Shown piece after piece: positions 1 to 51,541 of a DNA stretch of 64,000 nt. The notes beneath the pieces were generated by a model. That model was not told the DNA's origin. It did not search any database and worked only from the letters and a program-made list of their open reading frames with translations. The stretch is from the IMG/VR virus record IMGVR_UViG_3300020577_002484, positions 12,858 to 76,857 of that record; one strand, given 5' to 3'. Position 1 is the first letter of the stretch. Every line of letters begins with the position of its first letter. The DNA is from a virus (Duplodnaviria > Caudoviricetes). The position numbers and the translations under genes were made by a program.

Positions 1-20
1 AATCCGCCCCTTTCTTCATC

Positions 21-1124
21 TTACTGGCCGGTTTCGGCGGGGCTTTGGGCTTGGTCTTGGGCGGGGCTTTGGACTTGCTCTTGCTCATTGGAATCTTCTT
101 TCGTAACAACACCTTCTGGGATGTAAATCTTGCACGGCTCAGAGGTAGTCTTACCATCCAACCGTTCAAGTGTACGCTCAGCCGTCCTATCGAGAGTTTC
201 CATCCGTTGCTTGTTTTCCTCAAAACCCATGTCATCGAAGACTAGGCCAGTCTCAATGGCGTTGTGAACCTTGTGGAACCGATCGAATGTAAACTCTTGG
301 AACTCTTTAGACACCTTGGTACGGTGTTCTGCAATACGAAGTTGAGGATATATACCACCCATGTTCTTACCAACGATCTGGTCGATACAGGTGACAAACT
401 CATCCCCAATCTCAGCACCACAGAGCCAACCATAAGTGGCAACCTGCTCAGCCCAACCCTCATTGACGCATTCGAGAGTTGTGGCTGTGTTGATGATCAT
501 CCCTTGGTACTCACCCAAAACACAGTTCTTGTGAGCTTTACCGGGATCATTCTCTCCACTACCGTTTCTCAACCGGACATAGCCGGGGCTTGGGGAAGTG
601 TTACCATTCCCACAGTACCCATTGACCTTCCAATCGAGAATGACAATCTTGCCGTGTTTGTTCATGAAGAACACGTCAGGCTTCCCAAGGATGGAAATAC
701 CCTTAGTAGCACGAACACGCTCCGCACCCACACGACTCTGAATCTCAATCTCAAACCTCGGGTTACCAACTGCTTGATTAAGCTCAAGCATCAAGTCTGC
801 AAGTGCACCAGACCGCTTATAGCACTCGTAGACATACTTCCCTGCGTCCTTTGCCCAAACCCGATTGTGTTTTTCCACCTGAGACTCGAACAAGGTGGTG
901 AACTCGAAGCGAGGATCAGCACCCTTACCGAACAGGGTCTCATGTAGGTAAGCCTTGACGTAAGCGTCAAAGGCTGAACCAACAGACATTGGACGAGTCT
1001 GTGGGTCACGAGGGACTTTGAAAGGGGACAAATACTGAATGTACCACGCTTCACGATCTTCAAAGAACAACTTGACGTTCGACGGCGAAAGGTAAGCTGG
1101 CTTACGCATTAAGAGCTTTACCAA
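21..1124 (-). CDS. PD-(D/E)XK RecB/Cas4-like exonuclease
   Basis: N-terminal LSPS and GSAFD motifs, catalytic GKPD...ILDWK, and QVATY (QxxxY of the RecB family). Confidence 0.75.
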   Translation of the reverse strand: MVKLLMRKPAYLSPSNVKLFFEDREAWYIQYLSPFKVPRDPQTRPMSVGSAFDAYVKAYLHETLFGKGADPRFEFTTLFESQVEKHNRVWAKDAGKYVYECYKRSGALADLMLELNQAVGNPRFEIEIQSRVGAERVRATKGISILGKPDVFFMNKHGKIVILDWKVNGYCGNGNTSPSPGYVRLRNGSGENDPGKAHKNCVLGEYQGMIINTATTLECVNEGWAEQVATYGWLCGAEIGDEFVTCIDQIVGKNMGGIYPQLRIAEHRTKVSKEFQEFTFDRFHKVHNAIETGLVFDDMGFEENKQRMETLDRTAERTLERLDGKTTSEPCKIYIPEGVVTKEDSNEQEQVQSPAQDQAQSPAETGQ

Positions 1125-1425
1125 CCATCTTGAGAACGTAGAGGGAGGAGTAGATCATGAATGGTAGCAGCACCAAGGTCCGAAGGAAGTAGAGTGCATC
1201 AACCGGCACTCCAATGTTGACGTACAGGCCAATGATGCAGATGAGGGAGGACATCATGATCGAGTAGCTGACCAGCGGAGTAAGCTTCTGCCGGTCAACC
1301 CTTCTCCTCTCTTCATTTGCCTTACTGAAGGCACTTACAAGTGCATCAGTGATGGAACCTTTGTCATTGAAGCTCACAGGATCATCCATAATTTGTCTTT
1401 CATTTGTTTGTGGTAATGTTACCAA
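1102..1425 (-). CDS. Hypothetical membrane protein with two predicted TM segments
   Basis: ORF of 107 aa with two hydrophobic C-terminal stretches. Confidence 0.6.
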   Translation of the reverse strand: MVTLPQTNERQIMDDPVSFNDKGSITDALVSAFSKANEERRRVDRQKLTPLVSYSIMMSSLICIIGLYVNIGVPVDALYFLRTLVLLPFMIYSSLYVLKMVGKALNA

Positions 1426-1431
1426 GTACAG

Positions 1432-1505
1432 TAGCAGAGACAGGGATCGAACCTGCGACCGACGGATTAGAAGTCCGTTGCTCTATCCAACTGAGCTACT
1501 CTGCC
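1432..1505 (-). tRNA. tRNA-Arg(UCU), CCA not encoded
   Basis: Reverse complement GGCAGAGTAGCTCAGTTGGATAGAGCAACGGACTTCTAATCCGTCGGTCGCAGGTTCGATCCCTGTCTCTGCTA folds as a cloverleaf with anticodon TCT. Confidence 0.95.
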
Positions 1506-1509
1506 AAAC

Positions 1510-1701
1510 TCATCTCTTTTTGTTGTTACCAGACCTAGGATTCCAACCCTCACTTTGACCTAACTTATTAAGTTCATTTCTGGCTTTATTAACGTCTCTT
1601 TTATCCTTTTCTTCTTTTAGGCGACGTTTTAGAGTGTGTACTGAAATACCTAAGTCCCTAGCTTGCTCCTCTAGCGTTTTCTTTTGCATTGGAACCTTCA
1701 A
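1510..1701 (-). CDS. Small basic protein, possible HTH
   Basis: ARDLGISVHTLKRRL resembles a helix-turn-helix; overlaps the upstream stop codon. Confidence 0.5.
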   Translation of the reverse strand: MKVPMQKKTLEEQARDLGISVHTLKRRLKEEKDKRDVNKARNELNKLGQSEGWNPRSGNNKKR

Positions 1702-2006
1702 ACGGTATGCGTACCAAGCACACCACGACTATCCCGTTCGTTGGCTCGTTGTGCCAACGCCATCAGGGCGAGATTGAGATGGCTGATAGCTAGTTTGTTG
1801 GCTTCGTTGGCGAACTGAGTAGTCTGGAAGTGTTCCAGCCGCCCTTTGGCTGCTTCAATGATGTCAGAGACAAAGGCTCCATTTTGAGGAAGTTTGTTAG
1901 GCTCCCGGCCCAAAGGACCATTTTGCCAACCAATGGCGAATCCTGGGCCAAAGGTAGTGCCACCACTAGGTTTCCCATCAATCAGATTGTGATACTGTTC
2001 GATCAT
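1698..2006 (-). CDS. tad1: Tad1-like anti-defence nucleotide sponge
   Basis: WQNGP...SDIIEAAKGRLEHFQ..QF..EAN..A..HL..AL.....R..ER..RGVLGT matches the recalled Tad1 pattern FQKG...DLLEIVRDRL..FQ.GPF...EN..ALTH.EEAL.W...R...R..R.VLGT; start moved to the ATG at 2006 (AAAGG RBS, ATGA overlap). Confidence 0.75.
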   Translation of the reverse strand: MIEQYHNLIDGKPSGGTTFGPGFAIGWQNGPLGREPNKLPQNGAFVSDIIEAAKGRLEHFQTTQFANEANKLAISHLNLALMALAQRANERDSRGVLGTHTV

Positions 2007-2617
2007 GCTTCGCCTTTCTTTGGTTTGAACTCCCCACACCATCCGTTTTTATATGTGTGGGGGAACTCAGCGTTCAGTGGGCTGATGTAACCTTTGAATA
2101 CAACTTGAGGAGGGTATCTCCTACAGTCTCCAGCCCTGCCACCATCCCTCATCGTATTAAGGAAGAAGATACAGTCTTTACATTGACCACTCATGGTTTG
2201 TGTCCTAGCAGTTGCTAGGATCTGATCCTGATGGTCCTTCCACTCTAGGCCCACACTCTCGTGGGCACTGTCCTCTTTGGTATGGTCATAGTGTTTGCAC
2301 TCATAGGGCTTGACAGTATGGATGGTACAGAGACCATCTTTGAGGAAGGTGCAGACACCGGTTGGGTCTTCAGGGTACATACCACCCTTAACTGATTTGT
2401 CTGAAGCTGGGGCAAGGACATAAATGTTGGGAATGTCTACCCAATAGTCCACCGAGAGATGTTTCTGGAAGAACTCCTCCAAGGTCATGTTGAGATAGGC
2501 TGCGGCTTTCTCGGCCTCTCCGGGTGCGAACCAACCCGGTCTATGGGAACAGGCTGATTTACAATCATCACATTGACACTCAATAGTATCGTCGAGAACA
2601 GGAAGGGTCATGGTCAT
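2003..2617 (-). CDS. YkgJ-family Cys-cluster (Zn/Fe-chelating) protein fused to a second small Cys-rich domain
   Basis: CQCDDCKSAC...CTFL..GLCTIH..KP..CK, followed by MSGQCKDC...CRRYPP...WCGEF. Confidence 0.7.
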   Translation of the reverse strand: MTMTLPVLDDTIECQCDDCKSACSHRPGWFAPGEAEKAAAYLNMTLEEFFQKHLSVDYWVDIPNIYVLAPASDKSVKGGMYPEDPTGVCTFLKDGLCTIHTVKPYECKHYDHTKEDSAHESVGLEWKDHQDQILATARTQTMSGQCKDCIFFLNTMRDGGRAGDCRRYPPQVVFKGYISPLNAEFPHTYKNGWCGEFKPKKGEA

Positions 2618-2856
2618 ACCTCCAAATTTTTGTGTATATCCTGAAGGGACTTAATGAGTAACTTGAGTTGGTCCTTGGTAATGTAGGCTGAGTGCTTGCC
2701 ATCGGTCACTAAGCAAGCACCTAGGTAAGGTTTGAAGTCGAGCAAACTTACTCGATCCACCGTTTTCTCTTCTGAGTCTCGGAGGAGGATGTTAATCCTA
2801 ACATGCTCCTGATCATCCTCAAGTCCAACTTCAATGCCAAGTGGTTTTATACTCAT
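2614..2856 (-). CDS. Hypothetical protein
   Basis: ORF of 80 aa with GAGGAGG RBS and overlap with the next gene. Confidence 0.65.
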   Translation of the reverse strand: MSIKPLGIEVGLEDDQEHVRINILLRDSEEKTVDRVSLLDFKPYLGACLVTDGKHSAYITKDQLKLLIKSLQDIHKNLEV

Positions 2857-2893
2857 TCTGCATCCTCCTCTAAATGTGGTAGTGTCACCATAG

Positions 2894-2967
2894 TGGGAAG
2901 GGTGGGACTCGAACCCACAACCAACAAATTATGAGTTTGCTGCTCTGACCGATTGAGCTACCTTCCC
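2894..2967 (-). tRNA. tRNA with CAU anticodon, non-initiator (Ile2/lysidine type or elongator Met), CCA not encoded
   Basis: GGGAAGG/CCTTCCC acceptor stem, GCAAA-CTCATAA-TTTGT anticodon arm, GTGGG-TTCGAGT-CCCAC T arm; no C1:A72 mismatch and no 3GC initiator stem. Confidence 0.92.
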
Positions 2968-3040
2968 AAACCCACAACGACGCTTAAGCTATGATCGTTG
3001 TGGGGCCATCTTGACAGAGAATTCTCTGACAAGACGGTAG

Positions 3041-3132
3041 TGGAGAGGGTGGGAATCGAACCCACAACCCACACAATTAGGTTAATCGGAAGGGAACCTA
3101 ATCGTGTGTTCTACCGTTTGATTTACCTCTCC
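3041..3132 (-). ncRNA. tRNA-like RNA with a 14-bp extended anticodon arm and no canonical anticodon loop
   Basis: Perfect GGAGAGG/CCTCTCC-A acceptor stem and GTGGG-TTCGATT-CCCAC T arm, weak D arm, CACACGATTAGGTT/AACCTAATTGTGTG stem closing an 11-nt loop. Confidence 0.75.
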
Positions 3133-3278
3133 AGAGTGTAGCGTGGTACGCAACCTAAGCTGCAATAGCTTTTGATAGATACATCACGCTACATCTGACC
3201 ATCACCAAACTAACTTTTCCCTGTGAGTGTCCTCAAGACCTCACACGTAATAGGTGGGAGGTGATGATCCTCGCGAGT

Positions 3279-3929
3279 TTACTCTTTCCGAAACTCATTG
3301 AACCTCATCTCGATAGCATAAAGTGTATTACACACAAGAGACGTTGAAACACCCATTTGGTAGGCTACCTCTTTTTGAGTGTAGCCTTGCTTAAGTAGCT
3401 TGATGATCTGTAACTCACGATAGTTTTTGATTGAGCGATCCAAATCCTCAAGCAATTCTTCCGTATTACCATTAGATAACCCGATGTCAACCTCGTTAGG
3501 GTCAACGTAGGTTATCTTGACTGGACAATGATCCCCTCCCTTGCTGTTCAATAATAAGCTCCTGTTGCCAAGAATCTTATTATTCATGAACGCTACGAAG
3601 TCTTTGCACCTAGTGTGCATCTTCGCAACTGCAAAACCAGTGAAGTTATCATCGTACATTTCTTTTATCAGGTCGCAAGCCTGACAGACACCAGTTACTG
3701 CTTCTGACAGCAGATCATTACCAAACTTTGGGTAGAAGAAGGAATACTGTGAGGCCACAACGAAACAAAGTCTCAAGTGTCCTTGGACCAGATCGGACTT
3801 TGCGGTACTGTCGCCACTCTTCAATCGGAGCACCAAACTCTTAATCTGTTCTTCTGTTAGGTCTTTGATCTTGTCACTTAGAGGGCTTCTTATGCAACCC
3901 TTGCGTGACTTGCGTCTGAATAAGTACAT
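3279..3929 (-). CDS. Sigma70-family RNA polymerase sigma factor
   Basis: Region 1.2/2-like LTEEQ..L..RLKSGD..AK..LV.GHLRL..VVA.QY and region 4 HTH GYTQKEVAYQMGVS. Confidence 0.8.
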   Translation of the reverse strand: MYLFRRKSRKGCIRSPLSDKIKDLTEEQIKSLVLRLKSGDSTAKSDLVQGHLRLCFVVASQYSFFYPKFGNDLLSEAVTGVCQACDLIKEMYDDNFTGFAVAKMHTRCKDFVAFMNNKILGNRSLLLNSKGGDHCPVKITYVDPNEVDIGLSNGNTEELLEDLDRSIKNYRELQIIKLLKQGYTQKEVAYQMGVSTSLVCNTLYAIEMRFNEFRKE

Positions 3930-4357
3930 CAGGGCAGCTTGGCACTTCTCCTTGTGTTTTCTAATTTATCTCTGATCTTTGACCAGTGGTTTCCTGTCTC
4001 TGTGATGCCCATTTCGTAGGATCTTGTTACCATTCTTGAGGCAACCTCTATCAGGGCAGCACGGAAGTTTGTCCAACCGTACTTCTTCACCAACTGATAC
4101 ACCTCTTGAATGAGAGGTGTATCAAGGTTGGACGACATGGTATTCAGTTTGGATCTCTCAGACATAGCTGCCATAAACCTTTGGTATTCGGCAGCTACGT
4201 TTGGGTCTGATCGAATGTACTTGTTGAACACTGTTTGGTACTGTACCCCGATTGGAAGATCGAAGAAAGAATCATGTTCTTTGGTGTGGATAAGACTCCA
4301 CAGTTCGTGGTTTGAAGCCAAGAACTTTGTCATCGTTTCCGCGTGGTACAATACCAT
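3929..4357 (-). CDS. Hypothetical protein
   Basis: ORF of 142 aa with AGGA RBS and TGATG coupling to the sigma gene. Confidence 0.7.
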   Translation of the reverse strand: MVLYHAETMTKFLASNHELWSLIHTKEHDSFFDLPIGVQYQTVFNKYIRSDPNVAAEYQRFMAAMSERSKLNTMSSNLDTPLIQEVYQLVKKYGWTNFRAALIEVASRMVTRSYEMGITETGNHWSKIRDKLENTRRSAKLP

Positions 4358-4575
4358 GATTCATCCTAGAGGTACGATTACCAAATGTGGTACTGGCCGC
4401 CGTACCATTTCCAAGAATCCAGTACCATGCGGCCCGAACGAACCAAAATCCCTCCTCCATTATATCGACCTCTCGCACGGCATGCAAGCTAAGAAAACGG
4501 AAAAAATTCAGAAAGTTAAGAAAGTTTTGAAAGATACGCACAAGGTAAACAAAAATGGTACCGATACCAGTACCA
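4344..4575. promoter_or_regulatory. Cluster of TGGTA/TACCA palindromes (operator-like)
   Basis: TGGTAC-N8-GTACCA at 4388-4407 and 4556-4575; AGGTA-N4-TACCA at 4370-4383; TGGTA-N3-TACCA over the start codon at 4357. Confidence 0.55.
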
Positions 4576-4577
4576 CT

Positions 4578-5009
4578 TTACAAGAGCACCACTTGTACTA
4601 CTTTCAGATCATTGGGTGTTCTTTCTCGACGGGAAGGGTCGTATACCTTTTGTCCGTCCCAAGCCACAGCGTGAGTGGGTTCAATGATAACACACTTGCC
4701 GTGGGACATGTACTTTTTCACCCGATCATCATTGTTGTAAACGTCATGATGTGTACTTTTGTCTGGGGTCCAAAGACGCACTTTCGCAGGGACCATCATG
4801 GCTTTGATACCAAAGCTGAACCAGCAGAAGTCGAACATTTCAGAGGTGTGAAACCCTCTTCTATTCATTGGTTCGTGCAAGTCTGGAAACCAAATCTCTG
4901 AGCCATCATGCATCAGATAATCCGTGATCTTCTTCACATCAATGTCAAGAGCAATAGCGAAAGCTGTAGGCAAACAACTCCACATATTGGGTTGAGTCTG
5001 CATTTTCAT
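4578..5009 (-). CDS. Papain-fold (C39-like) cysteine peptidase
   Basis: Q..MWSCLPTAFAIAL (Gln oxyanion hole and Cys) and HAVAWDG..VYDP (His/Asp). Confidence 0.6.
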   Translation of the reverse strand: MKMQTQPNMWSCLPTAFAIALDIDVKKITDYLMHDGSEIWFPDLHEPMNRRGFHTSEMFDFCWFSFGIKAMMVPAKVRLWTPDKSTHHDVYNNDDRVKKYMSHGKCVIIEPTHAVAWDGQKVYDPSRRERTPNDLKVVQVVLL

Positions 5010-5011
5010 AT

Positions 5012-5224
5012 TTATAGTTCCAGTAGTTCGTGGAAAGGGTTTACCTGAAGCTCCCAACACTTGATAAAGAAGGAGATTGGTAAATCATCATCTCTATATG
5101 GACTGGCTTCAACGTATGAACAAACGAAGCAATAACCAGGTGAACACTTAACTGAGCCAACACCTACATCAACGTATTCTCCATCCTCAAAGGTATCGTT
5201 ACCACAGACGGGGCATGTTAGCAT
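5012..5224 (-). CDS. Small zinc-ribbon protein
   Basis: MLTCPVCG...CFVCSY; the upstream extension in the ORF track overlaps the NYN gene. Confidence 0.6.
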   Translation of the reverse strand: MLTCPVCGNDTFEDGEYVDVGVGSVKCSPGYCFVCSYVEASPYRDDDLPISFFIKCWELQVNPFHELLEL

Positions 5225-5273
5225 GGTAAAAGAAAAAAGGGTGAATGAGATTACTCCCATCCACCCTTTATAG

Positions 5274-5795
5274 TTACTCCTGTACAGTGGTGGCTTTGGC
5301 CTCTTCGAGACACTCAGGAGTGATCTCGATACAGGTGTCAGCCACAGCACGCAGTTCGCGAGGAATGCCACAAGACACGATAGTACACTTTTTACCGCGT
5401 GCTTTGACGTACTCAACGATCGGAGCAAGTTCAGGATCGGACGAGCAAATAGCAACAATGTCCAGCTTGTCAATCATATTGACAACATCCAGAGCAATGC
5501 TAACATTCCAATTCGTCTTAATAAGACGAACTACTCCATCCCCTCCTTGTCTTGATCTCGGTTGTTTGTACTTAGGCTCAAAGCCAATCTTCTTCAGACA
5601 AGTTATGAACTTGGTTGCTTCATCCTTGGCCTGAACACCATAAGCCACAGCACGGTAAATGGTATCACTACCTACAACTAACTCTCGCAACTGCCCATAG
5701 TCCAACTTCCTGTCAGGGAATTTCTTCCCCACACAGTAGAACAGACTACTAACATCAGCAAAGATACCGACAGTTTTCATACTCAGATTTGACAT
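5274..5795 (-). CDS. NYN/LabA-DUF88 (PIN-fold) domain protein
   Basis: IFADVSSL, SIALDV, CSSDPELAPIVEY.K.RGKK..IV, LRAVADTCI. Confidence 0.8.
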   Translation of the reverse strand: MSNLSMKTVGIFADVSSLFYCVGKKFPDRKLDYGQLRELVVGSDTIYRAVAYGVQAKDEATKFITCLKKIGFEPKYKQPRSRQGGDGVVRLIKTNWNVSIALDVVNMIDKLDIVAICSSDPELAPIVEYVKARGKKCTIVSCGIPRELRAVADTCIEITPECLEEAKATTVQE

Positions 5796-5820
5796 CTTTT
5801 CTGTCTTTCAACAATAAAGC

Positions 5821-8800
5821 CTACCCTACGTTAATCTGACACTGTGGTCCATCACAGTAGAGTTCAGCTTCCGGGTTTGAATTTGTTAGTTCACTCCAGT
5901 CGATAGGTTGTATCTGTTTGATACGGTGGTTATATTCTTCTTCTGTGATACCCTCTTCAGGCATTTGCTGGTAAACACCAGCAGCCGTATGAGGCAACAA
6001 AGAAACAGACTTGGTGAGAGGGGCAATTGAAGACAACACATTCTCAATGTCATCTTCCTCGTGTTTGATATTGTAGGTATACAACTTGACATCGACAGGG
6101 GTTCGAGTCTCGTTACGAGTTACCTTAATCTTGTGAAAAGAGTTCTCACTCTCATGCTCGATCTCATCGAAATCGAATCCATAGTCGTGAGCAATCTTTT
6201 TCGCAGATTGGAGGGTATCAGCAGTAAAAAGGTGTTTTACCAATACCCACTTAGGCTTGAAGTATAAAGTGTTTGATACGGCGTTATCCGCCCACTCTCT
6301 CTGAAGAACAATGATGTTATTTGATTGTTCCCAAACAGTAACTTCCTCCGCTGGCTTGGCTGGGCCTTGGATGATTGGGAACTCGAAAACATAAGTTCTC
6401 GTCGGATCAGTAACATCAGGTTCATGCGGAACTCCAGCCTTCACCAACAGTTTGAAGATAGGCTGGAACGTGGCGACTCTGACTCTGCGAACCGTCCACT
6501 TGAACGTAGGATAACCAGCACCTGAAGTCTTGCCAGCCAGTTTTGGTGTAGTACCACCTGGCTTGCAAGTTGTCTTACGAATAGCCTCAGGAACTCCGGC
6601 CTCTCCATTGGCCCAACGGTTCGTGTCACAAACAACCTCGTAACCTTTACGCAACAATGCAACAACCTTGTTCAACTCCGAGTTGTGTTTCCAACCTGTG
6701 AAGTCGACCAAGGACACGCCGATTCGGCGATTCTTGGCGACAACCTTGTTTGTAGACTTCCTGTGCGTCGGTAGCAGCGACACTGTTGAGCAGTAGAAGG
6801 TAGCATACTCACAAGCTTTGAGCCACTGTGCATCATTGTTGCAACGTGTGGGCAAAGTTTCAGCCAGATTACACACTTCACGATGCTCAAGTGGTATTTC
6901 ACCACAGTTAGAAACATTGCATCCTTGGGCCCAGAAAGTATGACTCGGACCATTGACAGTAATGTCCCAAGTCTCTTCCTCGCCAAGATACTCCTCAGAC
7001 AAAATCTCATAAGTCAATTTTGACTTGTTGTTTTTACCAGTACCATTTACAATTTTCTTGAGCTTTTCAGTTTTGTAGTTCTGAATGAACCCAATGTATT
7101 TGTAGAACACATCTCTGTCTGTAGAGATTTGAAGATTCCAAGAGTCTCGGCAAAGATAGGTACCATTACCAAACTCAATAATCTTACCTTCTTCCTTGGT
7201 ATAGTATGATCTGATCCCTAAGGCGGACAGCATCATCTGAGCAGCTTCAATCACTTTGAATGATGAAGCCTTCAGACATACTCTACCACGAATCACTGAA
7301 CCATTGGCAGAATACAAACCACGAAGGAACCCAGCCATCTTGGATGGGTTACAAAGGTAGAACCTTCCATCAATAGTCCGTTCATAGGTAAGCGGCAGCC
7401 TATGGATAGTAGTCTTAACCTTGTGACAGTAGTCCTTCGAGTAGGATTCACCAATCAGGTGTGCCACCTCACTTAAGAAGTAGTCATGGTCATTGGCACC
7501 AATGTTTAGGCAGACATGGTTATTCTCTTGAGATCCATCCCCAACCACAAGACCGTCCATAATATCTTGAGGGTCAAGCTGATCGGTAGCAATACCGGCT
7601 GGGCCTTCCAGAACATCAATTCCAAAGGCATCCTTAACTTCAACCTTCATACCTTCACAAACTACTCTATGGTTAGCTGTCCCATAGAATACATTTGCGT
7701 TGGTCCTATAGGCAAAGACAGGGTTGACACCTGTTGACCACTTTTTCTCAATAGTAACCCATCCATCTTCTGACCAAATCTTGGAGCCAACGTCAACCTG
7801 ATCAAAGGTAGTAATACCATTTGGAGTTAGTACCTTTGATGACGCTCTTAGGCAAGGGTTCATACCAGTGGCATAGTCCTTCCTTGCATATTCTGTCTTA
7901 CCAATGCGTCCCAAAGGGAGGTTCATCGAATTGATAAAGCCGGGTTCACCATTCTTAATCACTCTACGAGCGATCTCACCCAACTGTTGAAAATCCTCAG
8001 GTTCTTCAAGCTTGACAGAATTGTTACTCATGTAACCAACTTCTGCACGGTGTGGGAACGTCGTGTAATCCTTGAGATTCATAAAGGTCTCATCATAGAT
8101 GCTACCACTAAGGATCTCAGCACTACGTCTTACGTTCCCAGATACCACGCAACAGCCTGTGGCATTCATAATGTCAGACTTGAGCAAGATGGTATCATAG
8201 TATGGATCTTCCAGATACATACGCATGTACTTGTCAATCCTATTATGAAGTTCAATCAAGGGTCCGGGACCAGAAGCGACCCCGCCAAATCCTTTGATAG
8301 GTTCACCCTCAGGTCTGATCTCATCATAGATGAATCGTGGTCGTGAGCAACCCTTGGTAAGATAAGACTCAATAAGAGACTTAGTAGAGTCGCACCACCC
8401 TTCGCGAGAGTCTTCGACGACAAAGTCTCGTCCATTGCTCTTTGGTGAGAATACCTCAAGACCGGATCTGAGTGGTTGGGCACCAACTCCAACTCCATTC
8501 ATTAAGCAGTCCATGGCCCAATGGATGTCGTCACCAATCACATCAGTGAGATTGGTGAAAGCACAATTGTACAGAGCCATCGCACCACGTTGATAAACGA
8601 ACTCTGTTCCCATAGCCCACAGTCCACGTCCCGGCGGGAGCCAATACATATTGAACATGGAAATGGCAAAACCCAAAGCATAATGCTGCCACTGAAAGTC
8701 ATCCCAGAACAGATGATTCTTGATGTAATGGTCCTTACGGATGGACATTACACCTTCAGTAACACGAATTACACAATCAGCCCACGACTCCATCTTACCA

Positions 8801-8931
8801 TTTAGCATCATCCTTGAATAGTGTTTATAGAAGATAAATTCGCTGAACTGACCATACCCGAAGTTCGCGGACATGGAACGAATTGTATCTTTAGTTTGTT
8901 CTGCAAGCACAAACCTCTGCGTTACATACAT
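5821..8931 (-). CDS. nrdJ: Class II (adenosylcobalamin-dependent, monomeric type) ribonucleotide reductase with an intein
   Basis: PPGRGLW, LYNCAF, GNVRRSAE, NP-[intein]-CGEIPL, VCNLAE, TCKPGGT, C-terminal CDGPQC. Confidence 0.92.
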   Translation of the reverse strand: MYVTQRFVLAEQTKDTIRSMSANFGYGQFSEFIFYKHYSRMMLNGKMESWADCVIRVTEGVMSIRKDHYIKNHLFWDDFQWQHYALGFAISMFNMYWLPPGRGLWAMGTEFVYQRGAMALYNCAFTNLTDVIGDDIHWAMDCLMNGVGVGAQPLRSGLEVFSPKSNGRDFVVEDSREGWCDSTKSLIESYLTKGCSRPRFIYDEIRPEGEPIKGFGGVASGPGPLIELHNRIDKYMRMYLEDPYYDTILLKSDIMNATGCCVVSGNVRRSAEILSGSIYDETFMNLKDYTTFPHRAEVGYMSNNSVKLEEPEDFQQLGEIARRVIKNGEPGFINSMNLPLGRIGKTEYARKDYATGMNPCLRASSKVLTPNGITTFDQVDVGSKIWSEDGWVTIEKKWSTGVNPVFAYRTNANVFYGTANHRVVCEGMKVEVKDAFGIDVLEGPAGIATDQLDPQDIMDGLVVGDGSQENNHVCLNIGANDHDYFLSEVAHLIGESYSKDYCHKVKTTIHRLPLTYERTIDGRFYLCNPSKMAGFLRGLYSANGSVIRGRVCLKASSFKVIEAAQMMLSALGIRSYYTKEEGKIIEFGNGTYLCRDSWNLQISTDRDVFYKYIGFIQNYKTEKLKKIVNGTGKNNKSKLTYEILSEEYLGEEETWDITVNGPSHTFWAQGCNVSNCGEIPLEHREVCNLAETLPTRCNNDAQWLKACEYATFYCSTVSLLPTHRKSTNKVVAKNRRIGVSLVDFTGWKHNSELNKVVALLRKGYEVVCDTNRWANGEAGVPEAIRKTTCKPGGTTPKLAGKTSGAGYPTFKWTVRRVRVATFQPIFKLLVKAGVPHEPDVTDPTRTYVFEFPIIQGPAKPAEEVTVWEQSNNIIVLQREWADNAVSNTLYFKPKWVLVKHLFTADTLQSAKKIAHDYGFDFDEIEHESENSFHKIKVTRNETRTPVDVKLYTYNIKHEEDDIENVLSSIAPLTKSVSLLPHTAAGVYQQMPEEGITEEEYNHRIKQIQPIDWSELTNSNPEAELYCDGPQCQINVG
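6907..7854 (-). mobile_element. Intein (316 aa) with LAGLIDADG homing endonuclease, inserted just before the thiyl-radical Cys
   Basis: Starts CLRASSKVLTPNG, ends HTFWAQGCNVSN followed by C+1; LAGLIDADG-like IMDGLVVGDG and FLRGLYSANG. Confidence 0.9.
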
Positions 8932-8940
8932 GGGCTATTC

Positions 8941-9318
8941 TCACTTCATTCTTAATTGTTGTTTCAGGAAATACTCCCTCCAGTTGTGAGGTTTCCTAAG
9001 TTTGTCTATCTCAGAATCAGAAGCACCAACCAAGATCCATATGGCTGCACCGTGTGCTTCAAAGATTGGAAACCACTCACATTGGGCAGGGGTAAAGACA
9101 TGCTTCTCAGGATGTTTTACCTCTACCCACCTTTCACCGTATGTCTTGTGCCGACAGTACAAGTCAGGGAAGCCAGCTTGGAACATGCTACCATGAGTAG
9201 GTTTCACCAACCATTCTCGGTACCTTAGTTCCCTTATAATGGCTTCCTGAATATCAGCTTCTGACTCTTTGTGCTTTTTTAGTGACCCCATTGGCTCCAT
9301 TGACGGTCTCCATAGCAA
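8941..9318 (-). CDS. VRR-NUC nuclease (probable junction resolvase)
   Basis: E.DIQ..II..L, GFPDL, WVEVK, TPAQ..W. Confidence 0.85.
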   Translation of the reverse strand: MLWRPSMEPMGSLKKHKESEADIQEAIIRELRYREWLVKPTHGSMFQAGFPDLYCRHKTYGERWVEVKHPEKHVFTPAQCEWFPIFEAHGAAIWILVGASDSEIDKLRKPHNWREYFLKQQLRMK

Positions 9319-9523
9319 GTGACAAAGTGATCATTTGAACGACGTTGTGCAAGGACTCAACTTTCTTCGTTTGCTTGTACTCGTTGAGGTACTCCTCAGC
9401 ACGGATCAAACAATACTCTGGGCTACTGTTGGCAATGGCTGTTCTGAACAGGATAGCGGTCGGGTCGAAAATGAATTGACGAATGATTTCTTTGATGAGG
9501 GTTTTGGTAACACGTTGTTTCAT
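9254..9523 (-). CDS. Hypothetical protein
   Basis: ORF of 89 aa in the operon strand. Confidence 0.55.
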   Translation of the reverse strand: MKQRVTKTLIKEIIRQFIFDPTAILFRTAIANSSPEYCLIRAEEYLNEYKQTKKVESLHNVVQMITLSLAMETVNGANGVTKKAQRVRS

Positions 9524-9532
9524 GGTTTTCTT

Positions 9533-9853
9533 TCACATTTTCATAATTTTGAGGAAGTCACGTTTCAACTCTTCAAGGTGCCCCTTGATGAGATTCTGTT
9601 CTTGCAGTCCAGTAATCTCATGAAGAAGGTACATCTGCCAAACTGATGAGGTCAGTCCCGGAAGTGTCCAGACTTGGTTCGCTTGGGTCCAAGGACCATC
9701 ATAAAGGTACTTTACCGCAAGCTCGATCAAATCTTTGTTTTGCCTCGGTACTATACCATCCAACACATCTTTCAATCTCTCAATGAAGATTGAGTCTACG
9801 CCCGAGTAGAGTAGAATCTCAACCATGTTGTCTAGCATCTCAGCAAAAGACAA
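9533..9853 (-). CDS. Hypothetical protein
   Basis: ORF of 106 aa in the operon strand. Confidence 0.65.
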   Translation of the reverse strand: MSFAEMLDNMVEILLYSGVDSIFIERLKDVLDGIVPRQNKDLIELAVKYLYDGPWTQANQVWTLPGLTSSVWQMYLLHEITGLQEQNLIKGHLEELKRDFLKIMKM

Positions 9854-9857
9854 TTCT

Positions 9858-10097
9858 TCACTCGTCTTGATCTGATTCAGTTTGGTCCTCTATTCTTACA
9901 TTTTCTTGATCTTGAAGAAGTCTCAAAGCCTTATTGTACGAGGCAACGAACTCGCAGCATTCTCTGTACACAATATACTCACACTCCGATAAGGTCTTAC
10001 CCTCAGCACGCATATAAGACATACGCATGATGATATTGTAAGCCATAACGTAGGATTCGCTTATTTGGACGCCCAACTTTTCATCCCCATCTTCCAC
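9858..10097 (-). CDS. Hypothetical protein
   Basis: ORF of 79 aa overlapping the polymerase end; true start may be internal. Confidence 0.55.
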   Translation of the reverse strand: MEDGDEKLGVQISESYVMAYNIIMRMSYMRAEGKTLSECEYIVYRECCEFVASYNKALRLLQDQENVRIEDQTESDQDE

Positions 10098-12358
10098 TCC
10101 ATCCCAATGAGAGGGATTAGAGGTCTGAATGACTCTACTGTGTCACTCACGATCTTCTTTACTTGAAGTTCATAACCCCATTTTACTGGGCACAAGATTT
10201 CGTCATGAATGTTCATGGGCATGACAATCCATTCATTGATACCAGAAGGTTGAATCTGCCAAATCTTCTCTTGCACAATCTTAGTGATCCCTGCACCAGT
10301 ACCTTGAATCTCATGGTTGGTAGCTGATCTCACATTAGACTGTTGCAAGGCGAAAGCTGCACCAAACAAAGCTGACCGTGCTGCACCTTGTTCGGTCTGT
10401 TGACTTCCATCCCTGCGTCTGTTGACCTTTGCTTTGAAGGTCAACCAAGACTTGGGAGGGTCGTTACCCAGATCAAACAAAGCCTTGCAAATCATGTTTT
10501 CTAGGGTATAGTACCTTTTGAAGCCAAGCAAGGTTGGCATGAACTCAGCAGGCTCTTTCCAGATGATCCTGCTACCTATACCACCCACCTGTCTCATGGA
10601 CTGGAACATATTGGTAACACGAATCTGGGCACGAGCCACACCCTCATAGGTCTTGGCCCAATTCTCCATCGTGTTATCAGCCATCTCTTGACTGAGACCA
10701 ATATTGTTTACAAGAGAGTGGGCAGTACCACCATACAAAGAACTGAACAGTCCAGACTTACCCTTTTTGTATTTGTCATTCTCAGTATGCTGAGAAAGCA
10801 AGATACTATCGTAGGTCTCTTCGGGAAACATGGCCTGTGCGAACAGAGCATGGATCTTTTTACCAGACTTAAGTTCCTCTGTGAGCTTAGGATCATCGTA
10901 AATTGAAACTGCAATACCAACCTCAAACGAATCGAAGTCACCTCCACAAAGACTCATGCCCGGCCAATTTAGGTAAAAGCATTCTCGAACTTCTTTGGTA
11001 GCTTTGATACCTTGAGGGTTCAGTCCGTCGGCCCCAGCCATACGACCAGACAGGGCACCAATGATTTTGAATGAAGCGTGAAACCGTTCAGCTTGGAGAA
11101 GTTTGTCAAACAGTTCACGTTCTTTTCCAGCGGTCCGTGCAGCAGTAACAGCCTTTGCACGTTTAGTGATCTCATTGTCAATGGTACCGGTACCACCACA
11201 AGTCTTGCACTCCTTATCAGGTTCCCCTGACACTAAGGTGCAATCACATTCATCACCCCAAGTGGCCATCTCTTCCATAGTTACCTTATCGGTGCTATTC
11301 TCGGTGACAGCTACTTGTTCTGGAGTCAACAGGGGGAAGATCCATCTCTTCACATAGTGATGGTCCGTTGGGGCGGACTTTTCCTTCTGCTCGGCAATCT
11401 GTCTCTGCTTTTCTATCTTAGTGGTATCAACCCTGAAACCACGCCAACGTATTGCAGCGACAGCACAAGCAAGATTACTGTCCACATCTCCCACCTCAGG
11501 TCGTCCGAAATAGTCGTAAAGACGCCGGGTATAATCCACATCTTTTCTGGCGTACGTTCTCGCAAGTTCATTATACTCCCAATGGTCTATGTGTAACTTG
11601 ATCATTTGGGGCCATGTCCCCTGCCAGTTTTTCTTACTAGCGAAAGGAATGGCCTTGGCATAAGGAGCGTGTCCTACCTCTTTAGGTAGGAACTTCCTGT
11701 CCACCTCAATGTCAGAGAAACGAAGAATATCATCTTCCTTCTCACCCAAAGCATCTATGGCTAAGACCTTCAAAGCTGTTGAAGGCTTGAACTTCAGGAC
11801 GACATCTTTGAAGTCTGGATTAACGTGTCCATCACCATCGGTGACATCATATACTTGCCACCGTTTGTTGGTATCACCACCACGAGCGAAGTAAATGTCT
11901 TTGAGCGGTATACGTGCTTCAAGTTCATCGGCAAGCTGGAAGGCAATGGCTGTAGGAACCCTCTTGATACGAATATCATGACGGTCCATGCACGATTGGT
12001 ATGGGCCTTTGCGAGCTTCAAGGAACAAGTCGCACGCTTTGACCGGCTTAAGGCATAATCCATCTCTGGCATAAGGTTCAAGCTCACCAAGTTCATCAAT
12101 CAGATCAACAGGGTAAGCGTCCCAATCATCAATGAGTGAGAAGACAGTATAGGCTTTGCATAGTTGGAAATGGTCGAATGCAAGGTTGAACCCGACCACC
12201 CCTGTCTCATGCTCCATGAACATCTTGATTAGGCGAAGGTTATCTCCAATGGTATTGTACCAGAAGTTATGAAGATAAATATCACCATCATTTACTGCAT
12301 ATTGCAGTAAGACTGGCATTCCGTGCAGGCCGCAAGTTTCTGTATCATAGAAGATCAT
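10061..12358 (-). CDS. polA: Family A DNA polymerase with 3'-5' exonuclease
   Basis: ExoI DTET, ExoII FNLAFD, ExoIII YARKD; SGRM, motif A DFDSFE, motif B KSGLFSSLYG, IQGTGA, motif C IHDE. Confidence 0.92.
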   Translation of the reverse strand: MIFYDTETCGLHGMPVLLQYAVNDGDIYLHNFWYNTIGDNLRLIKMFMEHETGVVGFNLAFDHFQLCKAYTVFSLIDDWDAYPVDLIDELGELEPYARDGLCLKPVKACDLFLEARKGPYQSCMDRHDIRIKRVPTAIAFQLADELEARIPLKDIYFARGGDTNKRWQVYDVTDGDGHVNPDFKDVVLKFKPSTALKVLAIDALGEKEDDILRFSDIEVDRKFLPKEVGHAPYAKAIPFASKKNWQGTWPQMIKLHIDHWEYNELARTYARKDVDYTRRLYDYFGRPEVGDVDSNLACAVAAIRWRGFRVDTTKIEKQRQIAEQKEKSAPTDHHYVKRWIFPLLTPEQVAVTENSTDKVTMEEMATWGDECDCTLVSGEPDKECKTCGGTGTIDNEITKRAKAVTAARTAGKERELFDKLLQAERFHASFKIIGALSGRMAGADGLNPQGIKATKEVRECFYLNWPGMSLCGGDFDSFEVGIAVSIYDDPKLTEELKSGKKIHALFAQAMFPEETYDSILLSQHTENDKYKKGKSGLFSSLYGGTAHSLVNNIGLSQEMADNTMENWAKTYEGVARAQIRVTNMFQSMRQVGGIGSRIIWKEPAEFMPTLLGFKRYYTLENMICKALFDLGNDPPKSWLTFKAKVNRRRDGSQQTEQGAARSALFGAAFALQQSNVRSATNHEIQGTGAGITKIVQEKIWQIQPSGINEWIVMPMNIHDEILCPVKWGYELQVKKIVSDTVESFRPLIPLIGMEWKMGMKSWASK

Positions 12359-12567: not shown

Positions 12568-13510
12568 CGCTTGTGAGTTCCTTGAGTCTGATGGCACGAT
12601 CGCGGATTTCCTGCGGCATCTTCCACTCTCTACCGAACCCCTCTGCGTAGGATTCGATCTCCTCAAGAAGTTCAAACGTGTTCACATGACCGGCCACCCA
12701 ACCAAGGACTCTAGCTTCCAAGCAAGGTCCAACAGCCTCCATGATCATGTCTTGAATGGAATAAATCTCATTCAATGATCGTATCTTGTTAGAGAGTGGG
12801 TTAGACACCTTAGCTTCAGAAATCTTCTTGGCCTTACGGTTGATGGTAGACTCACCGCGAGCTTTCGATTCCTTCAAACAACGGTAGGTTGCGTAAAGGT
12901 CTTCTTTGACCCCAACAAGAGGGAGCAGGGTTTTGGCTTGCTCAAAGGTGATCGTACCAATTGACAACTCATCCTGAATGTCTTGTGGCAACTGAAGAAT
13001 GTCGATTCTGTCCTTGACCCAAGAGCCAGAGAAACCTACCATCTTACCGATGGAAACGTAGTCCATTCCAAGAACTCTAAACCTTTTCATGAACTCGGCA
13101 ATCTTGATCAGACTAATATCCTTACGGTGGATATTCTCTGCCAAGTTGTGACGCATGGCATCAAGTTCTGAAAGTCCAGTTCTGATGGATGCACGAATAG
13201 TGGGGAGGCCGAGGTGCTTGCAGGCTGTATATCGTCTGTGGCCCACAACGATCTTATATTTGTACTTACCGTTCGGGTCATTGAACGGCTGGACAAGGAT
13301 GGCTTGCAACAGGCCATCCCTCTTAATCTCTGCCATCAGATCCATCACATCAAACTTGGTAATGTCACCACGACAATTGAAACTCCCGTCGCAGAAGATT
13401 TCTGCAATAGGGAGTTCCTGTTCAGTAATGTGGTCACCATTATTGAATGTGACAGGTTCAAGCTCCCGCTTGAACTCATCAGATACTTCTTGTTGAGTGT
13501 ACTCAGACAT
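12551..13510 (-). CDS. ParB/Spo0J-like protein 1 (CTPase fold plus HTH)
   Basis: NCR...DLMAEIKRDGLLQAILV, VVGHRRYTAC, LAENIHRKDI, HTH IGKMVGFSGSWV. Confidence 0.85.
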   Translation of the reverse strand: MSEYTQQEVSDEFKRELEPVTFNNGDHITEQELPIAEIFCDGSFNCRGDITKFDVMDLMAEIKRDGLLQAILVQPFNDPNGKYKYKIVVGHRRYTACKHLGLPTIRASIRTGLSELDAMRHNLAENIHRKDISLIKIAEFMKRFRVLGMDYVSIGKMVGFSGSWVKDRIDILQLPQDIQDELSIGTITFEQAKTLLPLVGVKEDLYATYRCLKESKARGESTINRKAKKISEAKVSNPLSNKIRSLNEIYSIQDMIMEAVGPCLEARVLGWVAGHVNTFELLEEIESYAEGFGREWKMPQEIRDRAIRLKELTSDEQSE

Positions 13511-45334: not shown

Positions 45335-46735
45335 TTAACCCATGAGGACGCAACCCAGATTGGTGTCGAGAACCTTGATGCCGAACAGCATGTCAAGGGT
45401 CACTTGAGTACCCTGCTTGGTCGGGTTGTACGACAAGGTCGCCCGGAGGGACAGACCATTGTAGTTCACGACCGCAGCACGAGCACCAGAACCTGCCGGA
45501 GGCAGGGCCAGAGGACGGACAACCAACGCAATTGCGTTGCGATGGAACGCAAAGTTGTAGTCACCGGTACCCATCGGGTAGATCGGATCGCTGTTGCTGA
45601 TAGCAGCCTCCAGCGGACGATCCAACAGAATGGTGTTGTCGGTGGAATTGGCGTCAACGATCGTGTAGACCGCAGACGAGGCAGAAGTGCCAAACGTAAC
45701 CATCTGACCATCTTGGAACTTGATAGTCGGGTTGGTCACAGCAATGGTCTTCGTCCAACCAGCAGCATATCCACCACTCAGGTTCACGGAGCCGCCAGTG
45801 ATCGGGGTGATCACAGCGTTGTCAGCAACCGCAGAACGCAGACCCGGAGCAGCAATGGTGATACCAGTGGTGTTTCCGGTCGTCAGGGACGAAGAAACAA
45901 CACGGTACGGATCACTTCCAATCAGGATGAAGCTGTTGGACGGGATCGCATCACCAGTGAAACCATCAACCACCAGAACAGTCGTACCAACCGCGTAGCT
46001 ACCAGAGTGATTGACAGCACCGGCAGACCCGGTGGTAACGCTACCAATGCTGGCCATGTTCTGACCCATGTAGTGGTCAAAACCGAGCTTGCGGTCAATC
46101 ATCGCGTTCCGCATTGCAGCACCACCGTCACCGGAGGTATTGGCCTGAAGGATAATGTCGGCCTTCAAGACGTTAGTCTCGGAGGACGGTGCCCAAACGA
46201 TGTTACGACCCGAAACGTACGCCTTGTTGATGTTCATCTTGTTACGAACATCGAGGATCTTGTCCTTGGCGTTCGAGCTAGTCAGACCACCGGGCGTACC
46301 AACAAAGTTGGCATAGAACTGAGAATACTGACCGAGAACGATCTGATCAATGAACCGGGCCTGAGCGAGCAGGGCCGGAGCGAGGTAAGTGGCAACCAGA
46401 TCCTTGAAGGACCAAGTTTGTTCCACGTCGCGGATCAGGAACGAGACTTCAGCATGCTGGTTCAACGGGACAGCCACATTCGTGGAAGTCGCATCTTGCA
46501 GCGTGATGTCGTCGTTCGTACCCTTACGCTTCGATTGGAACTCGCCCGGACGACGGGTGTTTACCGTGTCGCCATAGGCTTGGAGTTGATTCTCGAAATC
46601 CCGGTGGACGAGGTTGGTAGCGACCATGTTCTCTTCGAGAATGGCCAAACCTTCCTGTGCCCAGAGTTCCGGGATGAAGGGATCAACACTGTTGGCGAAC
46701 ACGCGGATAGCGTGGTTGAGAATGGAATTTTCCAT
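45335..46735 (-). CDS. Major capsid protein (HK97 fold, P22-coat-like) with two inserted beta domains
   Basis: F.PELWA.E.L..LEEN.V..NLV.RD, GDTV...RP, N.AFHRNAIALV.RPL, LD.LFG.K.L. Confidence 0.9.
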   Translation of the reverse strand: MENSILNHAIRVFANSVDPFIPELWAQEGLAILEENMVATNLVHRDFENQLQAYGDTVNTRRPGEFQSKRKGTNDDITLQDATSTNVAVPLNQHAEVSFLIRDVEQTWSFKDLVATYLAPALLAQARFIDQIVLGQYSQFYANFVGTPGGLTSSNAKDKILDVRNKMNINKAYVSGRNIVWAPSSETNVLKADIILQANTSGDGGAAMRNAMIDRKLGFDHYMGQNMASIGSVTTGSAGAVNHSGSYAVGTTVLVVDGFTGDAIPSNSFILIGSDPYRVVSSSLTTGNTTGITIAAPGLRSAVADNAVITPITGGSVNLSGGYAAGWTKTIAVTNPTIKFQDGQMVTFGTSASSAVYTIVDANSTDNTILLDRPLEAAISNSDPIYPMGTGDYNFAFHRNAIALVVRPLALPPAGSGARAAVVNYNGLSLRATLSYNPTKQGTQVTLDMLFGIKVLDTNLGCVLMG

Positions 46736-49891: not shown

Positions 49892-51541
49892 TTACTCTCT
49901 AATATCCTCATTTTCGCCAGCACCTAAAGCGAATCTGAAGGCTAACTCTGAGTAGTTTCGAGCATGTGCGAAGTGGTCTGCTACCCCTTCACCAATCTCA
50001 TACCTACCCATAGGGTTACCATCAGCATCTCTTAGGTATCGTCTGACGGGGGCTTTGATGTGGTCTTTGTACGCTGTAGGAGTGTCAATAGGGAGACTTA
50101 TTGTCTTATTTTTGAACCTTCCAAGGGAAATATCAAGCCAAGAAGTTCTATCAACCTTGATAATTGGCTCAATATCGTCATCTTTTGACGTTAAGATCGT
50201 TCTTCCGACCTTATTTTGTGTATAGTAACAAACGTGTGCCCGACCATAGAATCGTCTAGCAAACTGCAATGACAATCTACGTTCGGGTTGGGCATCAATC
50301 ACAGCATGGCATATATTGTACCTTTTCATCAACTTGTCCAAGTCTGAAAAGTCAACTACCGTGCCCATTCTAAGACAAATACACATGCTATCTAAGGCTA
50401 CATCATTGCTGGTATTCTTCTTAGGAGGCTTCCACCAGTCAATCTCGTAGTGGCATTCAGCCCCAACGTCAATTCCCATGGTAATGATACCATCAGGGAT
50501 TGGGTCGTCGAATCTATTCTTATACCCCTTAATGATAGCGTAGTCAACCTGTTCGTCGTTGATTCGTGCACCTTCGACAGCATGGGTCAGACCTAGTTTA
50601 CTGTTGTAGAATTCCTGTTCAACAGTTGGATCTTTCTTGCTGTCAAAGAACATTTTTGCAATAGCTTGTGGCTTAACGGCTGAAGAATACAGTTGGCTGA
50701 CTGAAAATCCTCGGCTGAGGGCTTGTGGCTTCCTTGGTACCCATACCCCAGAAGCGAGATACTCCCATTTACCATCATGAGAAAGTTTATTTTTACATTC
50801 CGTACATTGCAGATAACTATCTACAATTCTAGGATCTTCACCGTGTTCGGCAGTGATGACCAGTGACTCTGGGAATGAGAAAATAATCTTTCTACTACAA
50901 CAGGGGCAGGTGAAGAAGAACTGTTCCTTTGTGGATTCTTCATGGTACTTGTCGATACCTCTGCCAGCTATGGTAGGAGTAGAGATCATCCAAATCTCTT
51001 TTTCCATTTGTCCGGATGTGCGTTCAAGTGCAAGAGCGATATTCTCTTGCACCATAACCTCAACCTCATCGAGGATGAGAAAGGCCACCGGAACCGATCG
51101 AAGCCCAGCTTTAGACTGACTGCCTCTAATCATCATACTGGCAGAGCCAGCACGCTTCAAAGAGACATTCTTCACATTACTGAACATATTTGCCAGATGT
51201 GGAGAAAGTTCTAGGGCACCATCAAACCGTGAAGCTGAAAAATCAGTTGCATCGGGTGTCTTGGATGGTAGGACATAGAGGCAGTCTTTTCCCTCAATAT
51301 CAATCTTATAGAAGGCTAAGTTGAGGACCACTTCAGTGAACCCCATCTGTGCAGCCTTCATACCAACATTCATTTCACACTTGGAGTCGTGCATTTCACG
51401 AGTCCAAGGGTGGTATTTATAACTCCATTTCCCCGATGGACCTACCCGATAGGCTTCTGCCCATCGGGATGGTGACACTACCCCTTTCCGGATTAGGCCA
51501 CTAGCAAGTCTCTCAGAGATGATTTTCGCAATAGCGTGCAT
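49892..51541 (-). CDS. terL: Terminase large subunit (lambda gpA-like)
   Basis: KAAQMGFTE, LILDEV, ISTPT, CPCC/CTEC zinc motif, QEFYNSKLG, MGIDVG, VIDAQP. Confidence 0.9.
   Translation of the reverse strand: MHAIAKIISERLASGLIRKGVVSPSRWAEAYRVGPSGKWSYKYHPWTREMHDSKCEMNVGMKAAQMGFTEVVLNLAFYKIDIEGKDCLYVLPSKTPDATDFSASRFDGALELSPHLANMFSNVKNVSLKRAGSASMMIRGSQSKAGLRSVPVAFLILDEVEVMVQENIALALERTSGQMEKEIWMISTPTIAGRGIDKYHEESTKEQFFFTCPCCSRKIIFSFPESLVITAEHGEDPRIVDSYLQCTECKNKLSHDGKWEYLASGVWVPRKPQALSRGFSVSQLYSSAVKPQAIAKMFFDSKKDPTVEQEFYNSKLGLTHAVEGARINDEQVDYAIIKGYKNRFDDPIPDGIITMGIDVGAECHYEIDWWKPPKKNTSNDVALDSMCICLRMGTVVDFSDLDKLMKRYNICHAVIDAQPERRLSLQFARRFYGRAHVCYYTQNKVGRTILTSKDDDIEPIIKVDRTSWLDISLGRFKNKTISLPIDTPTAYKDHIKAPVRRYLRDADGNPMGRYEIGEGVADHFAHARNYSELAFRFALGAGENEDIRE

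Follow-up and report, generated by a model that had tools for sequence, protein, structure and literature searches.

A compact Tad1-family protein encoded by a freshwater phage: conserved dimer-pocket residues and an altered trinucleotide site

Introduction

Tad1 (Thoeris anti-defence 1) proteins act as sponges for the nucleotide signals of two bacterial defences, Thoeris and CBASS. A short reading frame on the minus strand of a viral contig from freshwater raises the question of whether its product is a genuine Tad1 protein and, if so, which nucleotide immune signals it may sequester. The frame lies in a stretch of 64,000 nucleotides (positions 12,858 to 76,857 of IMG/VR record IMGVR_UViG_3300020577_002484), which is called the window throughout. 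Leavitt et al. (2022) listed 799 Tad1 homologs in phages of Proteobacteria, Firmicutes and Cyanobacteria. Thoeris was blocked by each of the ten diverse homologs tested there, among them proteins of Leptolyngbya, Opitutaceae (104 aa) and Acinetobacter. A 2025 study of 20 diverse Tad1 proteins again reported inhibition of CBASS and of type I Thoeris (PMC12393519).

Results

Gene structure and genomic neighborhood

The first-pass annotation, which was made from the sequence alone, had placed the gene at 1698-2006, and this assignment held. The open frame spans 2042 to 1698 on the minus strand, an in-frame ATG at 2006 yields a protein of 102 amino acids and the stop codon occupies 1700-1698. The ATG shares the sequence ATGA (2006-2003) with the stop of the preceding gene, and in an alignment of relatives the homologs start at the equivalent position. 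Since these two observations and the Shine-Dalgarno-like GAAAGG (Table 1) agree with each other, 2006 was taken as the start of the gene.

The gene forms part of a tight co-directional block, which consists of an 80-aa ORF, the 204-aa CxxCxxCC protein, the 102-aa gene, an HTH-like ORF of about 60 aa and tRNA-Arg. No terminator-like sites were seen between the genes of this block. The CxxCxxCC domain of the 204-aa protein is N-terminal and putatively Zn/Fe-chelating, and a second, C-terminal Cys motif of this protein matches PHROG 15838 over residues 143-173 only. When we looked for homologs of nine neighboring proteins at 32 loci of Tad1-like relatives, none was found, and for this reason the 204-aa gene is regarded as an operon neighbor and not as a conserved partner. 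The gene neighborhoods differ between the relatives at these 32 loci. Variable neighborhoods are usual for anti-defence genes.

Table 1. Features of the 102-aa gene, its predicted protein elements and other genes of the window
Feature	Position	Strand	Remarks
Tad1-family gene, putative sponge	1698..2006	-	102 aa + stop, protein P0001; ORF and translation
N-terminal antiparallel beta-sheet, residues 1-27 (predicted)	1926..2006	-	Conserved P13-x-G15-G16 loop and W27-Q28-x-G30 strand end
beta4-alpha1-equivalent loop, residues 28-45 (predicted)	1872..1925	-	Holds R34, probable CbTad1 R57 counterpart
Helix alpha1, residues 46-61 (predicted)	1824..1871	-	R56 (= CbTad1 R78), F60 (= F82, adenine stacking)
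Helix alpha2, residues 68-93 (predicted)	1728..1805	-	N70 (= N92), R87 (= R109), R91 (= R113) of gcADPR/CDN pocket
C-terminal lid, residues 94-102 (predicted)	1701..1727	-	R-G-V-L-G-T-H-T-V; G98 = CbTad1 G120, L97 = L119
Shine-Dalgarno-like GAAAGG	2013..2018	-	6 nt 5' of ATG; read off sequence
204-aa Cys-rich gene	2003..2617	-	Upstream, translationally coupled; CxxCxxCC domain, Pfam PF03692 E 1.8e-5
Small HTH-like ORF	1510..1701	-	Downstream; probable ATG at 1689; weak HTH matches only
tRNA-Arg(TCT)	1431-1505	-	After HTH-like ORF
tRNA-Met(CAT)	2893-2967	-	With tRNA-Arg(TCT), brackets small-gene block
216-aa sigma-factor-like protein	3279-3929	-	Just upstream of small-gene block; PHROG 351 E 3.5e-7, C-terminal HTH
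1036-aa ribonucleotide-reductase-like ORF	5821-8931	-	Apparent intein-like insert, by eye from translation
Major head protein	45335-46735	-	Only distant isolate relatives
Large terminase	49892-51541	-	Only distant isolate relatives

Phage lineage and environment

The source contig comprises 76,857 bp, was estimated to be 82% complete and carries genes for DNA polymerase, helicase, primase, terminase, portal, major head and tape-measure proteins. When head protein and large terminase were compared by tblastn with 50,697 isolate phage records, the best identities were about 25-36%, and the matches of terminase and capsid were distant and taxonomically mixed (Bacillus, Vibrio, Streptomyces, Gordonia, Pseudanabaena). 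In a megablast search of window positions 1-12000 against isolate phages, tRNA-Arg was the sole match. The phage belongs to a lineage without a close cultured relative. The contig was found again in freshwater and river metagenomes of several studies, and near-identical copies of the 102-aa gene are present in river metagenome contigs from separate studies. In the river metagenomes, the tRNA-Arg segment draws many unrelated contigs at 85-90% identity, and the depth is inflated there. The apparent intein-like insert in the ribonucleotide-reductase-like ORF of the window, as judged by eye, has a Cys-initiated block and a homing-endonuclease-like middle and ends with ...VSNC.

Sequence relation to Tad1

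To place the 102-aa protein, we searched the PDB with phmmer. Here, we found CbTad1 from a Clostridium botulinum prophage (7uav and related entries) at E 1e-8 in an alignment that covers query residues 35-101 without gaps, and CmTad1 from Clostridioides mangenotii at E 1.3e-3 for the protein alone. With a profile of 22 relatives, CmTad1 was matched at E 4.7e-12 and CbTad1 at E 8.8e-11. The same clade profile also matched gp184 of phiKZ (8y6v_I) at E 4.7e-7, which is a known Tad1. A match to PHROG 2428 was obtained at E 7.7e-16, and tblastn gave 39.6% identity (E 6e-9) to the 'Tad1' of Bacillus phage SPG24 and 41-44% identity to proteins of Vibrio phages. The precomputed Pfam label of the 102-aa protein is PF24729 (Acb2_Tad1_hairpin). 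A local Pfam scan returned no match for this protein or for any of the 22 relatives, and a six-frame PF24729 search of the contig returned nothing, as did its controls. The Tad1 relationship that had been proposed by eye is thus backed by significant sequence and profile matches.

The individual motifs on which that proposal rested are each present in the HMMER alignments to CbTad1. These alignments pair IGWQNGP with IKFQKGA, RLEHFQ with RLKSFQ, ANKLAISH with ENACALTH, QRANERDSRGVLGT with RRVEDRIERNVLGT, and RANERDSRGVLGT with RVEDRIERNVLGT. The first-pass annotation had noted the loss of the Cys in ENACALTH. This residue is indeed replaced (by Leu), but Tad1 proteins do not conserve it: CmTad1 and the Tad1 proteins of SPG24 and SBSphiJ7 have Met there. 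The functionally telling change, which had been overlooked, lies three residues before that Cys, where R90 of CbTad1 corresponds to E68.

Predicted fold

An AF2 model of the 102-aa protein was built from a 65-sequence alignment and reached a mean pLDDT of 95.3 and a pTM of 0.82. DSSP assigned strands to residues 2-7, 13-20 and 23-27 of this model and helices to residues 46-61 and 68-93. When we compared the model with the PDB by Foldseek, all 18 matches at E<=1e-3 (18/18) were Tad1 chains. VIA-align superimposed model residues 1-102 on residues 15-122 of the CmTad1 chain (Z 10.2, rmsd 1.8 A, 94 residues) and on residues 16-124 of the CbTad1 chain (Z 9.8, rmsd 2.5 A, 96 residues), and the next unrelated fold followed at Z 5.2. 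The predicted fold is that of Tad1, an N-terminal antiparallel sheet followed by two long C-terminal helices, minus beta1. Because the alignments begin at residue 16 of CbTad1 and residue 15 of CmTad1, about 15 N-terminal Tad1 residues, which form beta1, are absent from the model, and the shorter N-terminus noted earlier was therefore real. The connections within the sheet are shorter in the model than in Tad1. In the remaining sheet and the adjoining loop, P13, G15, G16, W27, Q28 and G30 are near-invariant among 167 relatives.

PF24729 is a joint Acb2 and Tad1 hairpin family, the 102 residues come near the size of Acb2 (about 90-95 aa), and some Acb2 proteins carry additional beta-strands and bind 3'cADPR. 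From these points it might be argued that the protein is an Acb2-type sponge, which would act mainly against cyclic-dinucleotide CBASS signalling by way of the common helical hairpin. We consider this extremely unlikely. Acb2 chains were absent from the PDB sequence matches up to E<=10, both for the protein and for the clade profile, and the alignment of T4 Vs.4 (7uq2) did not rise above the noise (Z 4.7, rmsd 9.3 A). Moreover, a three-stranded sheet as in Tad1 is present in the model, and the residues at the pocket positions are of the Tad1 type, not Y11/K26 of Acb2. An Acb2 identity was rejected, as the sequence and profile searches of the PDB and the fold comparisons all point to Tad1. The 102-aa protein is a genuine, compact member of the Tad1 family, and thus of a known kind; it does not represent a new system.

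The gcADPR/dinucleotide pocket

In CbTad1, gcADPR is contacted by F82, R109, N92, R57, R113, G120, F87, H29, G55, R78 and N122 (Leavitt et al. preprint). The adenine is stacked by F82 and R109 and contacted by N92, the diphosphate is bound by R109, R113 and R57 (the role of R57 being given in the same preprint), and F87, R78, G55, G120, H29 and N122 surround the riboses. Binding of 2',3'-cGAMP likewise needs F82/N92 and R109/R113 of CbTad1 (PMC10680739). For the comparison with the 102-aa protein, the PDB chain index equals the number used in the papers plus 1, and the query position equals the chain index minus 23.

The HMMER alignment indicated that 8/11 of these contacts are identical in the 102-aa protein, namely F82 (F60), F87 (F65), N92 (N70), R109 (R87), R113 (R91), R78 (R56), G55 (G30) and G120 (G98). 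The other three are unmatched. N122 corresponds to H100, H29 has no clear counterpart, and R57 can be matched only across a three-residue loop insertion, with R34 as its probable counterpart. This insertion was seen in the profile alignment as a 3-residue gap in CbTad1, and it makes the beta4-alpha1 loop 3 residues longer than in that protein.

To define the degree of conservation of these residues, we counted them in 167 full-length domains among the closest relatives. Every one of these domains has R87 and R91 (167/167 each), and R56 (164/167), Y/F60 (158/167), N70 (157/167) and F65 (155/167) are nearly invariant. R34 is present in 85/167 relatives, and H100 is the norm of the clade (130/167). 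If the retained residues act as they do in CbTad1, F60, R87 and N70 would stack on and read the adenine, R87, R91, probably R34 and the backbone of G98 would hold the diphosphate, and F65, R56 and G30 would buttress the riboses. Since the pocket residues are kept here and across the clade, a dimer pocket suited to a signal with adenine and diphosphate appears to be conserved. This conservation and the exclusive match to Tad1 structures support the first-pass reading of a Tad1-like sponge.

The same comparison permits a different reading, in which the adenine/diphosphate core is kept, the readers of the ribose linkage are changed and the Tad1-fold sponge has been retuned to a signal other than those known for Tad1. 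The ligand might then be a further TIR-derived isomer or conjugate of ADPR (His-ADPR, N7-cADPR) or a nucleotide of Gram-negative freshwater hosts that is not yet known. The readers of the ribose-ribose linkage are indeed not conserved (no clear H29 counterpart, His for N122), the beta4-alpha1 loop is extended, four clade-invariant positions close to pocket and lid are altered (see below), and ligand switches between homologs are known in sponge families (PMC12393519). Despite these points we regard a retuned sponge as rather unlikely. Eight of the eleven gcADPR contacts are identical, the Tad1 homologs that have been tested (ten, then a 'diverse' set) block type I Thoeris and/or CBASS and not other systems, and His100 is so common in the clade that it is nothing special to the 102-aa protein.

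The trinucleotide site and the hexamer interface

Cyclic trinucleotides are bound by Tad1 at the three-fold interface of the hexamer, where R90 and T97 of CbTad1 (R88 and T95 of CmTad1) form the site, and the R90A or T97A exchange in CbTad1 markedly reduced cA3 binding (PMC10680739). This site of the hexamer, which is a trimer of dimers, is common but not universal, as 6% of homologs are substituted there (PMC10680739).

In the HMMER alignment to CbTad1, both residues are altered in the 102-aa protein (R90 to E68, T97 to S75), and the same applies to residues of the hexamer interface (W105 to A83, E101 to L79). Helix alpha2, which carries the conserved pocket residues, thus also bears the altered trinucleotide positions E68, K71, L72 and S75. 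An Arg at position 68 occurs in 14/167 clade relatives, and the interface positions are freely variable. T4 Acb2 has an Asp (D61) at the equivalent of the Arg position and does not bind cA3. From these alignments we infer that the canonical trinucleotide site has been lost and that cA3 and cAAG would not be bound in the manner described for Tad1. The loss is not certain, because K71, which lies within the former site (= CmTad1 A91), could in principle stand in for the missing Arg.

Departures from the own clade

At four positions the 102-aa protein departs from the residue that prevails among the 167 relatives. These are position 47 (S here, E in 157/167), position 67 (N here, C in 135/167), position 88 (A here, T in 153/167) and position 97 (L here, E in 160/167). 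Positions 88 and 97 co-vary, as all domains without E97 (7/7) are also without T88. CbTad1 has V and L at the positions equivalent to 88 and 97, and its L119 (= L97) touches the guanine of 2',3'-cGAMP (PMC10680739). The lid function in CbTad1 has been assigned to residues 116-122 (Leavitt et al. preprint; PMC10680739).

Substitution of near-invariant clade positions (S47, N67, A88, L97) together with the absent trinucleotide site might suggest a decaying or functionless Tad1 copy that rides in an accessory operon. We judge this very unlikely. The frame, the ribosome-binding site and the translational coupling are intact, as are all core pocket residues, and the AF2 model is very confident. In addition, independent river metagenome contigs carry the gene in identical form, and the A88/L97 pair, besides co-varying, is also found in CbTad1 (V/L) and 6 other relatives. 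This recurrence argues for a compensated change at 88/97 and against drift, and from the alignments the pair looks like a switch of lid contact that was compensated. The co-varying T/E and hydrophobic lid pairs are a candidate specificity switch.

Discussion

The 102-aa protein most likely sequesters gcADPR-type signals in a dimer pocket, perhaps also cyclic dinucleotides, and not cA3 or cAAG. We hold this reading, which is drawn from aligned residues, to be probable. In the mechanism that we propose, the protein would form a head-to-tail dimer with two enclosed pockets, as CbTad1 and CmTad1 do, and would soak up an adenine-containing immune signal early in infection. The signal would be 1''-3' gcADPR from type I Thoeris, and some of the cyclic dinucleotides of CBASS are possible further ligands. 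With the signal sequestered, the host effector would never be activated.

A differing ligand range had been suspected in the first-pass annotation because of the replaced Cys and the shorter N-terminus. The suspicion is reasonable, but not on account of the Cys. The range may differ because the protein has lost the trinucleotide Arg, lacks beta1 with its residues Q8 and L13 (CbTad1 numbering) and has a lid pair like that of CbTad1. A preference among cyclic dinucleotides is not predictable, since the second-base contacts of beta1 are absent and the lid Leu resembles that of CbTad1.

A bolder reading concerns the whole group of short proteins with the motif 'GGTTFG-GWQNGPLGR'. This clade, which occurs in thousands of environmental phages, might be a dimer-only Tad1 lineage without trinucleotide binding, in which the 102-aa protein would have independently re-made a CbTad1-type lid (A88/L97 for T/E, together with S47 and N67). 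Its specificity could thereby have shifted to another second base or to another TIR- or cGAS-derived signal of freshwater Gram-negative hosts. We put this forward as a speculative and, on balance, doubtful reading.

A search with the clade profile returned 4,131 cluster representatives at E<=1e-3, of which 93 remained at E<=1e-30. The relatives stem from 23 IMG/VR viral contigs and a few MAG contigs (Verrucomicrobiota, Gammaproteobacteria, others) with unrelated gene neighborhoods. Some relatives are tandem short-Tad1 forms of about 190-216 aa with two matched stretches (P0025, P0026, P0030, P0051, P0064, P0085, P0099). In these tandem forms, the first copy ends before the R87/R91 end of the helix, and the second copy of P0030 and P0085 combines a degenerate pocket with a hydrophobic lid pair. 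The tandem forms may act as pseudo-dimers within a single chain, in which one pocket works.

The novelty of the gene is low, because the short clade is contained in the 2022 list of Tad1 homologs and Tad1 proteins from outside the Firmicutes have already been tested. The novelty that the first-pass annotation had implied for a host clade outside the Firmicutes was overstated, as the 2022 work had already listed and tested homologs from Proteobacteria, Verrucomicrobia and Cyanobacteria. What is known of Tad1 biology is not altered by this gene. With the assignment, a putative anti-defence gene is annotated in a freshwater phage that is otherwise uncharacterised, and the presence of a Tad1-family gene implies a host with TIR- or cGAS-type nucleotide signalling. 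Moreover, the pattern of the clade, in which the dimer pocket is invariant and the trinucleotide site and hexamer interface are variable, leads to a simple testable rule. Such a rule would sort two-pronged Tad1 homologs (gcADPR/CDN plus CTN) from single-site sponges.

Comparison with known systems

CbTad1 (PDB 7UAV, 7UAW, 8SMD, 8KBE-8KBH) is about 28% identical to the 102-aa protein over the structure alignment. The two proteins have in common the sheet-plus-two-helix fold, the lid Leu (L119 = L97) and the ...VLGT tail. CbTad1 is longer (124 aa), and its beta1 (residues 1-15), of which Q8 and L13 touch the guanine of 2',3'-cGAMP, is missing here. The beta3-beta4 connection is shorter than in CbTad1, whereas the beta4-alpha1 loop exceeds that of CbTad1 by the 3 residues mentioned above.

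CmTad1 (PDB 8KBB-8KBD) is both the best structural match and the best match of the clade profile, and it has the pattern E...C.EN...RT...EGT in common with the clade consensus. Its trinucleotide site C87/R88/T95 corresponds to N67/E68/S75 and its hexamer contact M102/W103 to M82/A83 of the 102-aa protein. S47, A88 and L97 stand in place of E, T and E, which are found in CmTad1 and in the clade.

A prophage homolog of 103 aa from Mycolicibacterium mucogenicum CSUR P2099 (Table S3, Leavitt et al. 2022 preprint) belongs to the same short clade and has the same architecture, NPAGGTTFG.GFAIGWQNGPLGRG...NGAFVED...VEGTH. Its identity to the 102-aa protein is about 54%, as determined via locus L012 of the same IMG genome. 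At positions 47, 88 and 97 it has E/T/E, as is typical of the clade, and Table S3 does not flag it as an experimentally tested protein.

Acb2 (anti-CBASS 2; T4 Vs.4; PDB 7UQ2, 8H39) is a small phage sponge of the same two-helix hairpin superfamily (PF24729). It is devoid of the N-terminal sheet and binds dinucleotides through Y11/K26. The 7uq2_A alignment ranks among those of unrelated helical hairpins, and the model of the 102-aa protein has a three-stranded sheet where Acb2 has its N-terminal helix.
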